Source of the DNA: an uncultured Actinomycetes bacterium
Lineage (GTDB): Bacteria > Actinomycetota > Actinomycetes > S36-B12 > CAIYMF01
DNA: 32,000 nt
Reading direction: 5' to 3'
Assembly (NCBI GenBank): GCA_963843975.1
Contig: CAWJMG010000001.1
Span: 1,170,001-1,202,000 of the forward strand
Positions 3,626-31,966 of this stretch are shown here, piece by piece; the first letter of the stretch is position 1, and each line of letters begins with the position of its first letter. The notes beneath the pieces were generated by a model. That model was given only the letters and a program-made list of their open reading frames with translations. It was not told where the DNA came from and did no database searches. Both the position numbers and the translations under genes were made by a program.

Positions 3626-4681
3626 ATGAGCGAGCCTGTCCGCATCGGAGTCGTCGGCTACGGCCTCGGTGGCCGCGTCTTCCACGCGCCGCTGATCGCA
3701 TCGGCCGGCAACGCCGTGCTCGCCGGGGTGATCACCACCGACGACGAGCGCCGGGCCCAGCTGGCCGAGGTGCACCCGGGGGTGCCCGCGCTGGCCTCGC
3801 TGCGCGAGCTCGTCGACGCCGGCGCCGAGGCGGTCGCGATCAGCTCGACGACCGGCACGCACGCAGCGCTCGCGCACGAGGCGCTCGACCTCGGCCTGCA
3901 CGTGGTGGTCGACAAGCCGCTCGCGGTCGACGCTGCCTCGGCGTCCGAGGTCGTCGAGCATGCAGACCGCGTTGGGTTGCTGCTGTCGGTGTTCCAGAAC
4001 CGGCGCTGGGACTCGGACTTCCTCACGGTGAAGCGCGTGCTCGCCGAGGGCACGGTCGGCGAGGTCTTCCGCTTCGAGTCGCGCTTCGAGCGCTGGGCAC
4101 CCGGGCCGCCGCGGGCGTGGTGGCGCAGCGAGCTGCCGCCGTCCGAGGGGGGCGGCGTCCGCCTCGACCTCGGCGCGCACCTCGTCGACCAGGCGCTGCA
4201 GCTGTTCGGACCGGTTACCTCGGTGTACGCCGAGTCGGCGATCCGGCGTACGACGGGGAAGGCGGAGGACGACCTCGCGGTGTCGCTGACGCACGCGAGC
4301 GGCGTGCAGTCGTACCTCGCGGCGAACACGTGGAGCGGCGACGTGACGCGGCGGTTCCGCGTGCTCGGCCGCGAGGGCGCGTACGTCGTCGGCGGGACGG
4401 ACGGGCAGGAGGACGCGCTGCGGGCGGGGCTGACGCCCACGACGTCGGGCGACGAGTGGGGTGTCGAGCCCGTGACCGCGTGGGGCCACGTGCACCGCGG
4501 TGGCGACATCGAGGTCGTGCCGACCGAGCGCGGACGCTGGGACACCTACTACCCGGCGTTCGCCGCGGCCGTGCGCGGCGAGGGCGACGTACCGGTCGAC
4601 CCGCGCGATGCGTCCGCCGCCCTGCAGGTGCTCGACGCGATCGCGACGAGCGCCGCCGAGCACGAGGTCGTCACCCTCTGA
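3626..4681 (+). CDS. Gfo/Idh/MocA family NAD(P)-dependent oxidoreductase
   Basis: ATG 3626 has GGAGG 6 nt upstream. MSEPVRIGVVGYGLGGRVFHAPLI.. is a Rossmann N-terminus, followed by ..HVVVDKPLAV.. and ..VFQNRRWDSDF.., typical of this family; 351 aa. The 5' part of the listed 516-aa ORF overlaps the YbaN gene and is discounted. Confidence 0.9.
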   Translation: MSEPVRIGVVGYGLGGRVFHAPLIASAGNAVLAGVITTDDERRAQLAEVHPGVPALASLRELVDAGAEAVAISSTTGTHAALAHEALDLGLHVVVDKPLAVDAASASEVVEHADRVGLLLSVFQNRRWDSDFLTVKRVLAEGTVGEVFRFESRFERWAPGPPRAWWRSELPPSEGGGVRLDLGAHLVDQALQLFGPVTSVYAESAIRRTTGKAEDDLAVSLTHASGVQSYLAANTWSGDVTRRFRVLGREGAYVVGGTDGQEDALRAGLTPTTSGDEWGVEPVTAWGHVHRGGDIEVVPTERGRWDTYYPAFAAAVRGEGDVPVDPRDASAALQVLDAIATSAAEHEVVTL

Positions 4682-26403: not shown

Positions 26404-26720
26404 GCGTAGGGGCGAGGGATCCGTCTCGGGCTGGCGCAGGTACGCGAGCGGAGGGCGAGGGATCCGTCTCGGGCTGGCAGAGGTGCGACGGTCGGGCGGC
26501 TTCGCCGCGGTGGGTCGAGGGGCTGCTGGGGTTCCTCCCGAATCCCTCGCCATCGGGCTGGGGCCCTACGGGCCCGGCGGAGGGCGAGGGATCCGTCTCG
26601 GGCGGGCGCAGCGGCGGTCAGGGGGGCGCCTTCGGCGCGGTGGCCCGGGCGGCGCGGGGGTTCCTCCCGAACCCCTCGCCCTCAGGCTGGGGCCCTTCGG
26701 GCCCGGCGGAGGGCGAGGGA
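26404..26720. repeat. Tandem array (about 43 + 129 + 129 bp, then a partial unit) of palindromic units, each ending in a copy of the tRNA-Ser acceptor/T-stem 3' strand
   Basis: GGCGGAGGGCGAGGGAT recurs at 26576 and 26705; variants lie at 26447 (AGCGGAGGGCGAGGGAT) and 26408. GGGGTTCCTCCCGAA(T/C)CCCTCGCC recurs at 26528 and 26657. Hairpins GGGCCC-TAC-GGGCCC (26561-26575) and GGGCCC-TTC-GGGCCC (26690-26704) occupy equivalent positions. Confidence 0.85.
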
Positions 26721-26757
26721 TTCGAACCCTCGGGATGTTTCCATCCAGCGGTTTTCA
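26704..26757 (-). other. Orphan 3' portion (anticodon loop to acceptor end) of a tRNA-Ser(UGA) gene; probable att-site remnant
   Basis: The minus strand reads CTTGAAA (loop, anticodon TGA) ACCGC TGGATGGAAACATCCC (class II variable arm GGATG-GAAA-CATCC) GAGGG TTCGAAT CCCTC (T arm) GCCCTCC G CC. Upstream sequence lacks the complementary anticodon-stem strand (it has ATGAT where GCGGT is needed), a D arm, and the 5' acceptor strand GGAGGGC. Confidence 0.65.
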
Positions 26758-26864
26758 AGATCATTCCCCGGGTCGGGTGCGCACGCGAGAATCCTTGTGC
26801 TGAGCACGAAATCGCGGTTCGGGGCCGTCCTTGAATGCCTTCTCTGGCCCCTGTTTCCCGCTAC

Positions 26865-26897
26865 ATCTGGCACGGATCTGGCACGGATCTGGCACGG
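26865..26897. promoter_or_regulatory. Perfect 3 x 11-bp direct repeat (ATCTGGCACGG), iteron or recombinase arm-type site candidate
   Basis: ATCTGGCACGG ATCTGGCACGG ATCTGGCACGG read directly. It lies about 110 bp from the tRNA fragment in non-coding DNA. Confidence 0.7.
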
Positions 26898-26915
26898 CAC
26901 GAGAAGGCCCGTGGG

Positions 26916-26997: not shown

Positions 26998-27480
26998 TCA
27001 TGGGCGGGGCTGCGGCACGCCGAGGCGCGCGCAGACTGTCGCGTCGTCGGGGAACACCACGAGCGATCCGTCCACGATGCAGGCGGTGAGCTCGGGCGGG
27101 ATGCCCGTCTGGTCGGGGGCGGTGACGATCCCCGCGCGCCACATCGCGGTGCACGCATCGACTGCCTGGAACGCTGATTGGTTCCCGTCGACGTCCGGCA
27201 CGGCACCGAATGCGAGCTGACCCCAGACTGCGGAGTCCAGTGACACCGTCGGTGAGCAGTAGCCCAGGTTCGGCTCGTCCGGGCTGGCGAAGCGCAGGTA
27301 GGCCGCCGCCGTACCCGCGCCCACCAGTAGCACCGCGACGACGGCAGCGATCACCGCGAGGATGCGCCGGCGGTGTCGCACACTCGTTGGCGCTAGACGG
27401 ACCTCGGCCATGACGACGGTCTTGATCTGCGCTGCCCGCGCGTCGCTCAGCGGGGGCGGCCAGGAACCCAGGTCACTCAT
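26998..27480 (-). CDS. Single-pass membrane protein coupled to an ECF sigma factor (putative anti-sigma factor)
   Basis: ATG 27480 overlaps the sigma stop by 8 nt (ATGAGTGA). One TM (ILAVIAAVVAVLLVGAGTAAAYL) is followed by a Cys-containing extracytoplasmic domain of about 100 aa. 160 aa. Confidence 0.7.
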   Translation of the reverse strand: MSDLGSWPPPLSDARAAQIKTVVMAEVRLAPTSVRHRRRILAVIAAVVAVLLVGAGTAAAYLRFASPDEPNLGYCSPTVSLDSAVWGQLAFGAVPDVDGNQSAFQAVDACTAMWRAGIVTAPDQTGIPPELTACIVDGSLVVFPDDATVCARLGVPQPRP

Positions 27481-28072
27481 CGCCCTCCCCCTCCCCTGCG
27501 GGGTTGTATCCGGCTTCGAGCAGCGCCGTACGCAGCTGCTTGCGGGCCCGCATCAACCGCGACCGCACTGCCGCATGCGTCAGGCCCAACGCCTCGGCGG
27601 CCTGCTCGTACGACAGCTCCTCCATCAAGCACAGCGACACCACCTGTCGGTCGGTGTCAGCCAATCCGGCCAGCGCCGCCGCCAGCGACCGTGCCGCTGC
27701 CTCCAGCGATGCCTGCTCGATCACCGCGCCGGCGTGATCCGGTTCCACGGCCGGCTGCGGAAGCCGTGCCAGTGCCGCTCGATACCGGCGGCGCGAGCGT
27801 CGATGGTTCAGTGCGACGTTCGTCGCCGTCGCCAGGAGCCACGGCAACGCGCTCCCGTCGACCACCCGGATCGCATCACGGCGCCGCCACGCCTCCAGGA
27901 ACACCATCGCCACAAGGTCGTCGGCGTCCTGCACCGTGCCAAGCTGGCGGGCGCAGTGCGCGTGGATCCGGACCACGTGCCGGTCGTACAGCTCCTCGAA
28001 CGCCGCCGACTCGCCCGACGCCACCCGGGCGCACAGCGAGGGCTCGTCGTCCGGGGGAGCCTCCTGCCTCAC
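27473..28072 (-). CDS. ECF RNA polymerase sigma factor
   Basis: ..SAAFEELYDRHVVRIHAHCARQLGTVQDADDLVAMVFLEAWRRR.. (region 2) and ..LADTDRQVVSLCLMEELSYEQAAEALGLTHAAVRSRLMRARKQL.. (region 4). The start is uncertain: GTG 28072, or upstream ATG 28207 / GTG 28234. Confidence 0.85.
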   Translation of the reverse strand: MRQEAPPDDEPSLCARVASGESAAFEELYDRHVVRIHAHCARQLGTVQDADDLVAMVFLEAWRRRDAIRVVDGSALPWLLATATNVALNHRRSRRRYRAALARLPQPAVEPDHAGAVIEQASLEAAARSLAAALAGLADTDRQVVSLCLMEELSYEQAAEALGLTHAAVRSRLMRARKQLRTALLEAGYNPAGEGEGDE

Positions 28073-28394
28073 ACCCCCTAGTGTCCGGCCCGCGCAAACC
28101 GTCGCACGGAGCCCTCCGCAGGCCGCGTCAACGAGGCGGCGGTCGTTGCCCAAGCCTCCTGGCGCGGAGCCGACACTGGCGTGCGACGAATCCGCGGCTT
28201 CGGACATAGGGCGTGTGTGGGCGACCCTCCCCACGGGGGTGGGAGGGATCGGCCACGCTCACCCGGCCGCCGTCGACCTAGGGAGCCACGTCTATGACCG
28301 TGCGTCAGCACGTCGCCCGGTTGTGCCTGGTGGACGAGCGCCGGGTCGTGCTCCTTGAGGCCGACGACCCCGAACATCCGGCAGTATCACTCGC

Positions 28395-28886
28395 ATGACA
28401 GGGGAGGAGTCGGAGCCGTTCGCGACGGTGCGACCCGCGGTCCACCAGCCCGTGCGACAGAGACGCCGCTGGTGGCTCGTGATTGCTGCGGCGACCTCCC
28501 TGCTGATCCTTGGTGCCACTGCTGCGGCGCTCGGCCTGCGCGATGACTACAACAACGGGGCATTGTTCTTCTGCATCAGCGACGACGTGGCAGCCGCGAT
28601 CCATGACGAGACACTCGCGCTTGTCCCGGCGAACGCAACAGGTATGACCAGTCGGGTCTCGGACTGCGACGATCGCCGTGCCACGACGGTCCAGTTCACC
28701 GACACGTCCAGCGACGAAGCGACGCTGTTCCAGGCGGCGGCGCGAGCTGGATGGACAAGAGCCACTCCCACATGTTCCGAGAAGCAGATCAGCGGCCGCA
28801 GCGTGCATCTGAAGATCGACGTCGTTGCTGCCCCTGACCCCAGCGCTGGGCAGTGGTCCCTCTACGCCTCACCGGGATCGTGCTAG
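28395..28886 (+). CDS. Hypothetical membrane-anchored protein in a lower-GC patch
   Basis: 163 aa with one N-terminal TM (WWLVIAAATSLLILGATAAALGL) and 4 Cys in the exported part. Divergent from the ECF sigma gene. Codon GC3 is weaker than elsewhere. Confidence 0.55.
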   Translation: MTGEESEPFATVRPAVHQPVRQRRRWWLVIAAATSLLILGATAAALGLRDDYNNGALFFCISDDVAAAIHDETLALVPANATGMTSRVSDCDDRRATTVQFTDTSSDEATLFQAAARAGWTRATPTCSEKQISGRSVHLKIDVVAAPDPSAGQWSLYASPGSC

Positions 28887-29255: not shown

Positions 29256-29282
29256 GTGTGAGCCCCGCTGCCGGGCTCACAC
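29256..29282 (-). terminator. 10-bp perfect stem-loop overlapping the abiEii stop codon
   Basis: GTGTGAGCCC (29256-29265) / GGGCTCACAC (29273-29282) with a 7-nt loop. Confidence 0.45.
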
Positions 29283-30161
29283 CCAGGTCCCGGTGTGGGC
29301 CTCCCACCGGCGATCGGTGACGCGACCGAGTAGTACCGGGTCCGCGAAGCCGATGACTCTGCCGAGGACGTCCTGGAAGGTGCTCGGCAGATCGTCCCTG
29401 TCGTGGCGACGACGCCAGGTCGCGTACCGCGGTTGAGCGAGTGCGGGGAAGCCGACCAGGACTTCGCTGAGCGGCAGCAGGTGAACTGCGCGGTGGGCAG
29501 CGACAGAGCTGATCGCGAGTTCGAGCTCATCGCCGGCCACGTCGTGGCGGCCGGCGAGGGAGTACACGTCGCCGAAATCCCGCCATCGAGTGTTGGCGGT
29601 ACCGCGGCTGACGGCCGTGACGATCTTCTCGGCATGGACCATGACGATCGGATAGCCGCGCAGAGCGACAGGATCCCCGAGGACGCGGGGCAGCTCGATG
29701 ACCTGTGGCTCGGGGACGATCGGGTCTCCGACGTTGACGTCGATGTGCAGGTGGATCTCGACCGTCGCGAGGTGGGCGACGAGACTGACGCGGACACCGG
29801 CGTACTCGTCGTCGTCCCGGATGATGCTGGCGGTCGCAGCAGCAGTGTCGAAGGTCAGGCCATCTTCGGCCGGCAGCGCGGCCACGGAGCGAACCATGGC
29901 GAGCACGGTCTGCGCATCGTTGGCCAGGTCGTGGGCCTGCAGGTCGATGTCTCGGGTCGGGCGCCGTAGGTCGAAGGCGGCGAGCAGCGCGCCACCCTTG
30001 AGGACGACGTGGTCTCGCTCGGGCGAGGCGGCGAGCCTGGCGAGGAACCCGTCCAGGGCGTGGAATGTGTAGAGCTCCTGCGGCGACCGTCCGGCGCGGG
30101 GCGCAAGATTGCGCAGGTCGTTGAACGCGGCCCCCGACGGCGTCGATCGGGGCACGGTCAC
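29277..30161 (-). CDS. abiEii: AbiEii/AbiGii-family nucleotidyltransferase toxin (type IV toxin-antitoxin, DUF1814)
   Basis: GTG 30161 overlaps the antitoxin stop (GTGA). 294 aa. ..ERDHVVLKGGALLAAFDLRRPTRDIDLQ.. is the hLKGGtAL...R.T.DiDl NTase motif, followed by ..VRVSLVAHLATVEIHLHIDVNVGDPI... Confidence 0.88.
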   Translation of the reverse strand: MTVPRSTPSGAAFNDLRNLAPRAGRSPQELYTFHALDGFLARLAASPERDHVVLKGGALLAAFDLRRPTRDIDLQAHDLANDAQTVLAMVRSVAALPAEDGLTFDTAAATASIIRDDDEYAGVRVSLVAHLATVEIHLHIDVNVGDPIVPEPQVIELPRVLGDPVALRGYPIVMVHAEKIVTAVSRGTANTRWRDFGDVYSLAGRHDVAGDELELAISSVAAHRAVHLLPLSEVLVGFPALAQPRYATWRRRHDRDDLPSTFQDVLGRVIGFADPVLLGRVTDRRWEAHTGTWV

Positions 30162-30761
30162 AGCAGGATCTCCAGCGCCGACCGGATGGGTGCCTCGGCC
30201 CGGGGGAACCGGGACGCCAGAGCGAGCAGCTGCGATGGCTGGGCCCCGGGCCGCGCGAGCCATCGGCGCAGCGCCTCGTTGCCGAGCTCGGGCCCCTCCA
30301 GCCGGCGGAGCCGGAACGCGTCGACGATGCAGCGCTGCGCAGAGTAGAGCCCGATGGAGTGTCCGTCGCCGAGCCTCGAGGTGCTCTCGTCCGAGGTCGA
30401 AGGTGGCGGCAGCGAACCGGTGCCACGCGATGGGGATCGCCAGGCTGGGTGGACGGGTGCCGGCGGGCAGTGCGATGTGCAGTCGAGAAGGGATGTCGTC
30501 GGACAGGCCGTGGCGCGACAGCGCTGATCGCAGGCAGATGGTTGCCGCGGCCGCGCGTACCGAGATCGTGAGCAGGTCGGGGTCGGCCGGCGCGTCGGTC
30601 GCCTTGGCGTACCAGCCCCGGCCCGCGAGCTCGAGCAGGCCCTCCCCCCGCAAGCTCTCCAGCGCCCAGTCGCTGACACCCAGGTCCAAGGCCTGGCCGC
30701 GCGAGAACGACGGGGGGAGCAGATCGAGCCACTCGCTCCGGGGGGTAGCCGGTCGGGCCAT
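30158..30761 (-). pseudogene. abiEi: AbiEi-family antitoxin/transcriptional regulator, interrupted by an apparent +1 frameshift at 30374-30375
   Basis: From ATG 30761 the sequence reads MARPATPRSEWLDLLPPSFSRGQALDLGVSDWALESLRGEGLLELAGRGWY.. (AbiEi N-terminal wHTH), up to ..AWHRFAAATFDLGREHLE. The conserved C-terminus LGDGHSIGLYSAQRCIVDAFRLRRLEGPELGNEALRRWLARPGAQPSQLLALASRFPRAEAPIRSALEILL* is in the frame reached by skipping one base. The span is 604 nt, which is 3n+1. Confidence 0.8.
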
Positions 30762-30880
30762 GACCTGGTCGCTCCTCCCCTTTGTCTGGAAACCGTATCA
30801 CTGAGAGGTTTCACAATAACACTTCCTCAAGTAATGTGCGAGGCATTGCCCCCGTGGATCGGACGGGCAAGGCTGCGCAC

Positions 30881-31966
30881 ATGGAAGACCGGGACGCCGT
30901 CGATGCAGTGCAGCGGCGGATGCAGCCGGCTGCGTTCCGCGCGGACCTGGCAGGCAGCGTCGCTGCGATACCCGACGCGATCGACGCTGGGCTGCTCCAC
31001 GCCGCCGTCCCGGTGGCGATCGTCGCGCTGCGGCAGGAGCGGGCCGCGGTAGGCCTTGAGCGCCTTGGCGACCTCGACCTCAACCGGCTCGGCGACGCTC
31101 TGACAGCCCGGGGCTGGGACGGCGACGACGTCGCCGTCGAGGCCCTGCAGGCCGCACGGTCGGGCACGCCGACCGGCCGCATCGAGATCCCCGCCGACCT
31201 CGAGATGCTCGGCGACGTCCTGAACCAGCAGCTCGGCGGCTACCTCGAACGCGCCACCGGGGAGGCGTGGCCGGCGTCGGTGTTCGAGGACGGCGCGCTC
31301 GAGGACGACGGCGACCCGGACGAGGACACCGACCGGTGGATGTACGTGCCCGGCGACTCCCGCGACGCCTGGCAGGACATGGCCGACTTCGCCGCCCACG
31401 CGCCCGACCCCCACGTCCGCGAGCTCCTCGAGCTCGCCATCGAGGGTCGCGGCGCGTTCAGCCGCTTCAAGTCCGCACTCGACCGGCACCCGACGTACTG
31501 GACCGACTGGCACGTCTGGTCCAGCGAGCGGGCCATCGGACGCGCCCGGAGCTGGCTCGCGTCCGAGGGCTACGACCCGCTCCCCTGCGCTCACCCAGGC
31601 GCGGACTCTTCTGGCTCCAAGAAGCGGCGACGCCGGCAACATCCCTTGTCGCACGGTCGCGCGGCCGTCCCAGGCGTACGACACGGCACCATCCGGCACG
31701 CCGCAGGGGACCACCGAGCGAGCAGCAGCCCCGGCCCCCCTACGCCCCGCAGAGGACACCCTCGCGGGCCCGACGCCGTCATATGCATCTCGTGCTCGCT
31801 CAGCCGCGGGTCCTCGATCACGGCACACACTGGTATCTGGAAACCCATTGCGGAGCGCACGAGGATGCGCCGCCGACACCCACACCGTCGACCGGGGCCA
31901 GCAGCCGCGGCAGCGACCTCGGCTCCAAGCAGGCGGTCGCCTGCTGCGGCATGCGAATCTGCCTGA
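30881..31966 (+). CDS. UPF0158 family protein; the 3' end is uncertain
   Basis: ..LGGYLERATGEAWPASVFEDG..DTDRWMYVPGDSRDAWQDMADFAAHAPDPHVRELLELAIEGRGAFSRFKSALDRHPTYWTDWHVWSSERAIGRARSWLASEGY matches UPF0158 (..I.GrGAFrRFKd.l......w..w..f...r....a..WL...G). Conservation ends near 31580. The ORF stays open to 31966 with deteriorating codon bias. The start is ATG 30881 or GTG 30854. Confidence 0.7.
   Translation: MEDRDAVDAVQRRMQPAAFRADLAGSVAAIPDAIDAGLLHAAVPVAIVALRQERAAVGLERLGDLDLNRLGDALTARGWDGDDVAVEALQAARSGTPTGRIEIPADLEMLGDVLNQQLGGYLERATGEAWPASVFEDGALEDDGDPDEDTDRWMYVPGDSRDAWQDMADFAAHAPDPHVRELLELAIEGRGAFSRFKSALDRHPTYWTDWHVWSSERAIGRARSWLASEGYDPLPCAHPGADSSGSKKRRRRQHPLSHGRAAVPGVRHGTIRHAAGDHRASSSPGPPTPRRGHPRGPDAVICISCSLSRGSSITAHTGIWKPIAERTRMRRRHPHRRPGPAAAAATSAPSRRSPAAACESA

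Follow-up and report, generated by a model that had tools for sequence, protein, structure and literature searches.

A tRNA-Ser(UGA) 3' copy as the probable attR end of a 7,387-bp integrative island in an uncultured Actinomycetes bacterium

The displaced tRNA-Ser(UGA) copy

The window analysed was a 32-kb stretch of DNA (G000:C1:1170001-1202000) from a genome of 4.19 Mb with 71.6 % GC in 3 contigs. It was used together with locus L001 (C1:1194001-1212000), where L001 position + 24000 gives the window position; positions past 32000 are quoted as window-equivalent. The minus strand from 26760 to 26705 reads TCTTGAAAACCGCTGG-ATGGAAACATCC-CGAGGGTTCGAATCCCTCGCCCTCCGCC. This is a 56-nt 3' portion of tRNA-Ser(UGA), designated attR. 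It opens with the first anticodon-loop base and closes one base beyond the discriminator; after the loop come the 3' half of the anticodon stem, a class-II variable arm with its two sides paired, the T arm and the 3' strand of the acceptor stem. The original prediction had recognised a tRNA-Ser 3' half on this strand, which stands; the limits given there, 26704-26757, are replaced by those of the repeat, 26705-26760.

The sequence 5' of the copy (...GGGGAATGA, longer form ...CCCGGGGAATGA) makes pairing with ACCGC impossible, and no D arm, 5' acceptor strand or 5' anticodon stem was found on that side of 26705-26760, in agreement with the earlier description of the 5' side as not tRNA. ARAGORN called 0 tRNAs in the whole 32-kb window and Rfam returned 0 matches in it at gathering score, as had been anticipated for tRNA predictors at 26.7 kb. 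With a relaxed threshold Rfam gave a forced tRNA-Sec alignment (20 bits, E 0.32, 5' half mismatched) and a spurious plastid 3'-UTR family aligned antisense to the copy.

BLAST of the fragment against the whole genome found one other site, C1:1204148-1204203, with 50/56 identities and an E value of 7.6e-11; nothing comparable was found elsewhere in the genome. The site is the 3' part of the sole tRNA-Ser(tga) gene, an intact gene called by ARAGORN in the whole genome at C1 c[1204148,1204234] (window-equivalent 34148-34234, minus strand). The repeat block inside it (attL) occupies window-equivalent 34148-34203 on the same strand. The two copies are identical over 16 nt (TCTTGAAAACCGCTGG) and 29 nt (CCGAGGGTTCGAATCCCTCGCCCTCCGCC). 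All 6 mismatches of the 56-nt repeat fall in the variable arm and are compensatory (GGATG-GAAA-CATCC vs GGGTA-GCGA-TACCC).

Gene content between the copies

Exactly 7,387 bp separate the two tRNA-like copies, both on the minus strand of C1, and the interval between them begins at window 26761 and ends at window-equivalent 34147. In the direction of the tRNA strand, the intact tRNA gene (attL, 34234-34148) is followed by the P' arm, a membrane ORF, int and xis, then by a UPF0158-family gene, AbiEi/AbiEii, an unknown ORF, an ECF sigma gene and its partner ORF, and last by the P arm, the 56-nt tRNA copy (attR, 26760-26705) and the native flank. Both int and xis are transcribed towards the tRNA.

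The tyrosine integrase (371 aa, window-equivalent 32451-33566, plus strand) matched PF00589 at 2.1e-21, a SAM-like N-terminal domain, and phrog_1 at 3.5e-60 over residues 8-360. Its catalytic residues (R, HxxR, H and Y) align to those of IntI4. The N-terminal extension is homologous to phage integrases, the phrog_1 match beginning at residue 8, and Pfam gave no arm-domain match on the N-terminal domain. Immediately upstream of int lies the excisionase gene (68 aa, window-equivalent 32222-32428, plus strand), which matched HTH_17 at 1e-12 and TIGR01764 ('excise') at 3.2e-14, above cut-off. A 124-aa ORF with two membrane spans (window-equivalent 33634-34008, plus strand) lies between int and the tRNA. 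The other end had been forecast past 32000, with a same-strand tRNA-Ser(UGA) and an integrase, and this is where the tRNA gene, the integrase and the excisionase are located. The proposal that the fragment is an identity block duplicated on integration is supported by the intact tRNA-Ser(UGA) and tyrosine integrase at that end. The element had also been placed above 26760, and this side holds the integrase and xis, in the interval up to 34147, while the sequence below 26705 is native chromosome.

An ECF-type sigma factor carried as cargo (27473..28234, minus strand) matched Sigma70_r2 at 4e-11, Sigma70_r4_2 at 1.5e-12 and TIGR02937 at 2.2e-20. Directly downstream of it is a 160-aa ORF with one predicted membrane span (26998..27480, minus strand, GC3 0.85), for which Pfam, NCBIfam and PHROGs gave no family match. 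The sigma gene and this ORF are conserved in G038 at 93 %. A paralogue of the sigma/partner ORF pair with 75 % DNA identity is present outside the window at G000:C1:1134132-1135240. A 163-aa ORF (28395..28886, plus strand, GC3 0.77) lies in the lowest-GC patch of the element and had no family match in Pfam, NCBIfam, PHROGs or PADLOC. The AbiEii nucleotidyltransferase toxin (29277..30161, minus strand) matched PADLOC AbiEii at 5.2e-75 and PF08843 at 1.3e-29. The AbiEi antitoxin (30158..30761, minus strand) matched PADLOC AbiEi at 1.1e-46 and has one frameshift as assembled, around 30374; read across the break with X, it gave a full-length PADLOC match.

The UPF0158-family gene (30782..31966, plus strand) matched PF03682 at 2.5e-4, with the conserved part ending near 31600; its homologue in G033 matched PF03682 at 2.6e-8. 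In G033 and G038 the related elements also have this gene next to xis-int. The ORF stays open for ~120 codons beyond the conserved domain (31600-31966), and all three plus frames are open as far as the xis region.

No replication gene, FtsK-like Tra, relaxase or phage structural gene was found among the 9 element ORFs in Pfam, NCBIfam and PHROGs. The ECF sigma gene, the AbiE pair and the UPF0158 gene had been listed as island-like content and are confirmed as such; the 160-aa ORF, listed there as an anti-sigma factor, is possibly the partner of the sigma factor, judged from position only. The GC of the element is 69.9 %, at the 14th percentile of equally long genome windows (71.6 +/- 1.9 %), and GC3 is 0.76-0.92 in element genes and 0.88-0.96 in flanking genes. 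A GC and codon-usage profile had been proposed as a check on the junction; the GC signal is weak, with GC3 of the element genes somewhat lower than in the flanks, and base composition was rejected as a boundary marker as not discriminating.

Arm repeats

The P arm (26761..26900, minus strand) contains three perfect 11-bp CGTGCCAGATC repeats at 26865-26897 and a CGTGCT site at 26803-26808, all of them putative arm-type sites. The triplet, described earlier as a 3 x 11-bp iteron, is a perfect repeat by TRF (3.0 copies, 100 %) and lies 104 nt inside attR. Two copies of CGTGCCAGAT(C/G) are present on the P' arm (window-equivalent 34058-34079, minus strand). This pair reads CGTGCCAGATC CGTGCCAGATG, lies 68 nt inside attL and has the same orientation as the repeats of the P arm. 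Of the 7 occurrences of CGTGCCAGATC in 4.19 Mb, the two arms account for three, and one falls within int; for the 12-mer GTGCCAGATGTA the genome has 3 occurrences, 2 of them in the arms. The P arms of G000 and G038 are 93 % identical.

CGTGCC doublets were found in 20+ related elements, ~70 nt past the tRNA end (P') and ~105-135 nt before the block (P). The CGTGCCnnnnn repeats stand on both arms at conserved positions and co-vary between the arms: the five variable nucleotides change together in the two arms of one element, as in ATTCG/ACATC of G039, CGCTG/CGTAG of Geodermatophilaceae and AGATC of G000. The P' arms of the clade all start with (C)TGACC(T/A)GC.

Lambda/L5-type integrases have direct repeats at fixed distances on both attP arms, a separate Xis and an N-terminal extension before a SAM-like core-binding domain. 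The G000 element is like them in its arm repeats on both sides, the N-terminal extension of its integrase and its separate xis, and by this analogy the 11-bp repeats would be the arm-type sites to which the integrase binds. In the reconstructed attP they would stand to either side of the tRNA-like core. Unlike lambda and L5, the G000 element is not a phage, and the N-terminal domain of its integrase is without a Pfam assignment.

Native 129-bp tandem units

The native flank consists of tandem units of 129 bp (26448..26721, minus strand; TRF period 129, 2.1 copies, 84 %). The final 17 nt of the tRNA open each unit (window 26404-26721), which also contains the complement (GAGGGCGAGGG), and partial copies of the tRNA 3' end are present in the flank at 26592, 26463 and ~26428. 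The tRNA-like unit ends match the local T stem, with CCCAC in both tRNA and units of G018, G003 and G013 and CCCTC in G000 and G012. Since units are present in element-free congeners and co-vary with the T stem, they are native and not part of the element. A reading of the units as older att scars was rejected on the same two grounds, that they follow the intact tRNA in those congeners and that they vary with its T stem.

Unoccupied and occupied sites in relatives

Within the genus the block was present in 17 of 28 genomes, 6 of which had 2 or 3 copies. The intact tRNA is followed directly by native-type units in G031:C59, G012, G010, G018, G003, G013 and G039:C3. A comparison with close relatives had been suggested for this locus, and in these seven the tRNA is fused to the flank that here follows the fragment. 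G031:C59 matches L001 2443-2760 and 10148-12911 contiguously, with an overlap of exactly the 56-nt block, and identity to G000 in the G031 flanks is 86-87 %. The G031 assembly is a fragmented MAG, and contig C59 runs into other DNA beyond the units. On a second contig (L041, G031:C17) a decayed tRNA-Ser-like 3' fragment with the loop CTGAGAA and a different variable arm was observed at 3980-4040. It precedes the same units and DUF6326/TetR; the intact tRNA on C59 precedes near-identical units. The difference between C17 and C59 suggests a strain mixture or a second island. Because the MAG is fragmented and these two structures coexist in it, the G031 site is an attB-type junction and not a clean whole-locus empty site.

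Comparison of G038 with G000 on the attR side gave ~78 % identity through TetR-DUF6326 and a step to ~93 % exactly at the fragment, which continues through the sigma gene. On the attL side, G033 is ~91 % identical to G000 in xis-int and ~75-80 % in the chromosomal flank. From these identity steps the element is a mosaic that crosses species faster than the chromosome diverges. In G038 (L038, G038:C10 7866-9973) the UPF0158-xis-int module, whose integrase protein is 92 % identical, has the opposite orientation to the attR/P-arm end, and the P' arm is on another contig. G039 carries two complete tRNA-Ser(UGA) genes (C3:274388-274476 and C4:813944-814042), one syntenic with the native flank at a contig end and the other heading a 17.8-kb element elsewhere.

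The integrase clade and its attachment site

The integrase was scanned in one genome per species, giving 33 loci, 27 of them with an integrase at least 59 % identical. In 23 of these 27 a tRNA-Ser(tga) gene lies just downstream on the opposite strand; the 4 exceptions are three loci at or near a contig end and G038, which is mid-contig. The 23 tRNA-linked loci are from Geodermatophilus, Blastococcus, Modestobacter, Sporichthyaceae and Nanopelagicales-type MAGs. The repeat starts at the first anticodon-loop base in the G000 element and in every related element examined. Five complete Geodermatophilaceae genomes have exactly two block copies each, 9.8-17.5 kb apart on one contig in four and on separate contigs in one.

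Cargo differs between the elements. The G033 element carries HAD, a sigma factor, an Imm1-like gene and IS110 in two copies; in that of Blastococcus sp. TF02A-30 a TrwC relaxase is accompanied by a TIR-plus-UvrD pair. What stays constant, therefore, is a backbone of att, xis and int, to which exchangeable cargo is added.

Two further contigs were noted in the course of these searches. On a 12-kb contig (L018, G011:C59) the tRNA-like block at ~4978 stands between a P arm and the P' arm of another element, which would mark either the joint of two elements in tandem or the attP of a free circle. A 4.5-kb contig in a Myxococcaceae MAG (L042, SCUS01000033.1) encodes an integrase 94 % identical and is probably a mis-binned actinobacterial contig. 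A metagenome scan for free attP (P-arm junction, block and P' junction) gave 0 matches, and with the P-arm junction 21-mer it returned one unrelated attR with a different P arm.

A brief literature search did not find a tRNA-Ser(UGA)-specific integrase clade of Geodermatophilaceae/Sporichthyaceae/Nanopelagicales. Such a clade, readable in its att and arm-site architecture and found in actinobacterial lineages that have been little studied, could become an integration tool for these hosts.

Interpretation of the locus

We interpret the orphan tRNA half as the attR of a 7,387-bp integrative island inserted by its tyrosine recombinase into the sole tRNA-Ser(UGA) gene, with a probability of about 0.93. 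An attP carrying the tRNA-like block, from the anticodon loop to the 3' end, would have been joined to attB inside the gene. Integration would then regenerate a working tRNA and displace the 3' copy, and Xis would direct excision. The annotation of the region is thereby fixed as a mobile island carrying an ECF sigma pair and an AbiE toxin-antitoxin/abortive-infection pair, with native chromosome below 26705.

That the fragment is a decayed tRNA pseudogene or a part of the 129-bp duplication, with no link to integration, is highly improbable. The further partial copies of the tRNA 3' end in the flank would agree with such an origin, but the flank units hold only the last 17-27 nt of the tRNA, also follow the intact tRNA in relatives that have no element and vary with the T stem of each lineage. 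The beginning of the 56-nt copy coincides exactly with the att boundary of the clade; the copy adjoins a P arm that is shared with other elements and is matched by an attL bearing int and xis 7.4 kb away, and among the relatives none was seen that lacks the element and keeps the 56-nt fragment. An island that is real but now fixed and immobile, its fragment a scar without present function, is a more serious alternative, if less than an even prospect. It would fit the frameshift in abiEi as assembled and an island whose ORFs show no relaxase, replication or transfer gene by Pfam, NCBIfam and PHROGs. Against it, int and xis are full length with the integrase catalytic residues in place, the two blocks are identical outside the variable arm (16 + 29 nt), the arm repeats are perfect, and near-identical island modules occur in other species beside a more diverged chromosome. 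The island described here may still be mobile.

Strand-exchange point and the variable arm

Within the inserted island, strand exchange probably took place in the anticodon loop. In all elements of the clade, with integrases only ~60 % identical, the first loop base marks the beginning of the repeat, and such a boundary is expected only with exchange in the loop. For the same island an exchange 3' of the variable arm, in the T loop or at the T/acceptor junction, is rather unlikely. In that case the intact gene would keep the native variable arm, and the fragment would be native only in the T arm and acceptor end, its part from loop to variable arm belonging to the element. Several arms conform to this: GGGTAGCGATACCC at the unoccupied G031 junction is the arm of the intact gene of G000, with 3 differences in the next 51 nt of flank beyond it; the fragment arm GGATGGAAACATCC recurs in G038 beside the 93 % identical P arm; and a single P' arm type, without a difference over >50 nt between G005 and G035, adjoins another variable arm in each of these genomes and a third in G039, which shares the P' type. 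Other arms speak for exchange in the loop. In Blastococcus G042 the arm of the unoccupied G045 site, which has a homologous flank, is found in the displaced fragment and not in the intact gene. In Geodermatophilaceae the AAGAGG-type arm is present in 11/11 sampled unoccupied sites and 2 attR fragments and in 0/19 integrase-adjacent intact genes, counts that come from related genomes and are thus not independent. All fragment arms are moreover perfectly paired, as expected of former or future parts of a working tRNA. Across ~20 genomes the variable arms thus gave conflicting signals in their links to the P arm, the P' arm or the host flank. With exchange in the anticodon loop, the conflicting arms might be explained by occasional loss or capture through the 29-nt identity.

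The same arm sequences are found as host alleles at unoccupied sites, as arms of regenerated genes and in displaced fragments, and their combinations track neither the chromosome nor one element arm. We suggest only tentatively that islands of the clade repeatedly rewrite the variable arm of a single-copy, presumably essential tRNA-Ser(UGA). Such rewriting would need resolution on either side of the variable arm. It could proceed by anticodon-loop exchange, with recombination in the 29-nt T-arm/acceptor identity causing loss or capture, or through two usable exchange points. If it does occur, the tRNA allele of a species would largely record past element traffic.

Classification

Islander recognises crossover subsites in the anticodon loop, the T loop and the T/acceptor junction, and classed 2,083 islands as anticodon-centred by a fragment-start rule (PMC4383910). 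At the present locus the features that Islander calls for take the following form. An intact tRNA gene and a same-strand 3' fragment (56 nt, 50/56) lie 7,387 bp apart, with a tyrosine integrase between them (PF00589, phrog_1, catalytic residues). The fragment starts at a recognised crossover subsite, the first anticodon-loop base. The unoccupied site is found in seven congeners, with the caveat for G031 that it is a fragmented MAG. The G000 island is like the class 'A' anticodon-centred islands (PMC4383910) in its regenerated tRNA, its displaced direct 3' fragment starting at the anticodon loop, its internal tyrosine integrase and the tandem arrays in relatives (G011). It is no different in kind from the Islander tRNA/tmRNA-gene islands (PMC4383910).

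The element shares with pSAM2, SLP1 and pMEA300 (PMC2440964) an actinobacterial host, an xis-int module, a similarly small size, an attB overlapping the tRNA 3' end and an att identity segment common to attP and attB. It differs from them (PMC2440964) in that it has no replication gene and no FtsK/SpoIIIE-type transfer gene, carries a sigma pair and an AbiE pair as cargo and targets tRNA-Ser(UGA). Since it lacks genes for replication, transfer, a relaxase and phage structure, it belongs neither to the AICEs nor to the prophages. An AICE was rejected as int/xis and the tRNA 3'-end att are present with no RepSA/RepAM/prim-pol module and no FtsK/SpoIIIE-like Tra; the three ORFs without assignment (160, 163 and 124 aa) are too small for the latter. 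A prophage was rejected as PHROGs matched only the sigma factor, the excisionase and the integrase, with no capsid, tail, terminase or lysis genes. The AICE, phage or P4-type element named in the original prediction is accordingly abandoned in favour of a plain tRNA-borne island without replication or transfer genes. An integrative mobilizable element was rejected on the relaxase criterion, no relaxase being found in G000 by Pfam and NCBIfam. The island is of a known kind, an ordinary tRNA-gene integrative island and otherwise a textbook case, with a clean arm-site architecture and the variable-arm shuffle as a minor curiosity.

The element of Blastococcus sp. TF02A-30 is an integrative mobilizable element (MOBF/TrwC) of the same integrase clade, with the same att site and arm layout, from which the G000 element differs in having no relaxase. 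It is inserted at the same tRNA (L087, 2025-12876) and is 13.7 kb long. Its TrwC is a relaxase-helicase, and its TIR-domain protein is CAP12/Pycsar-effector-like and adjoins the UvrD helicase, the two likely forming a defence pair.
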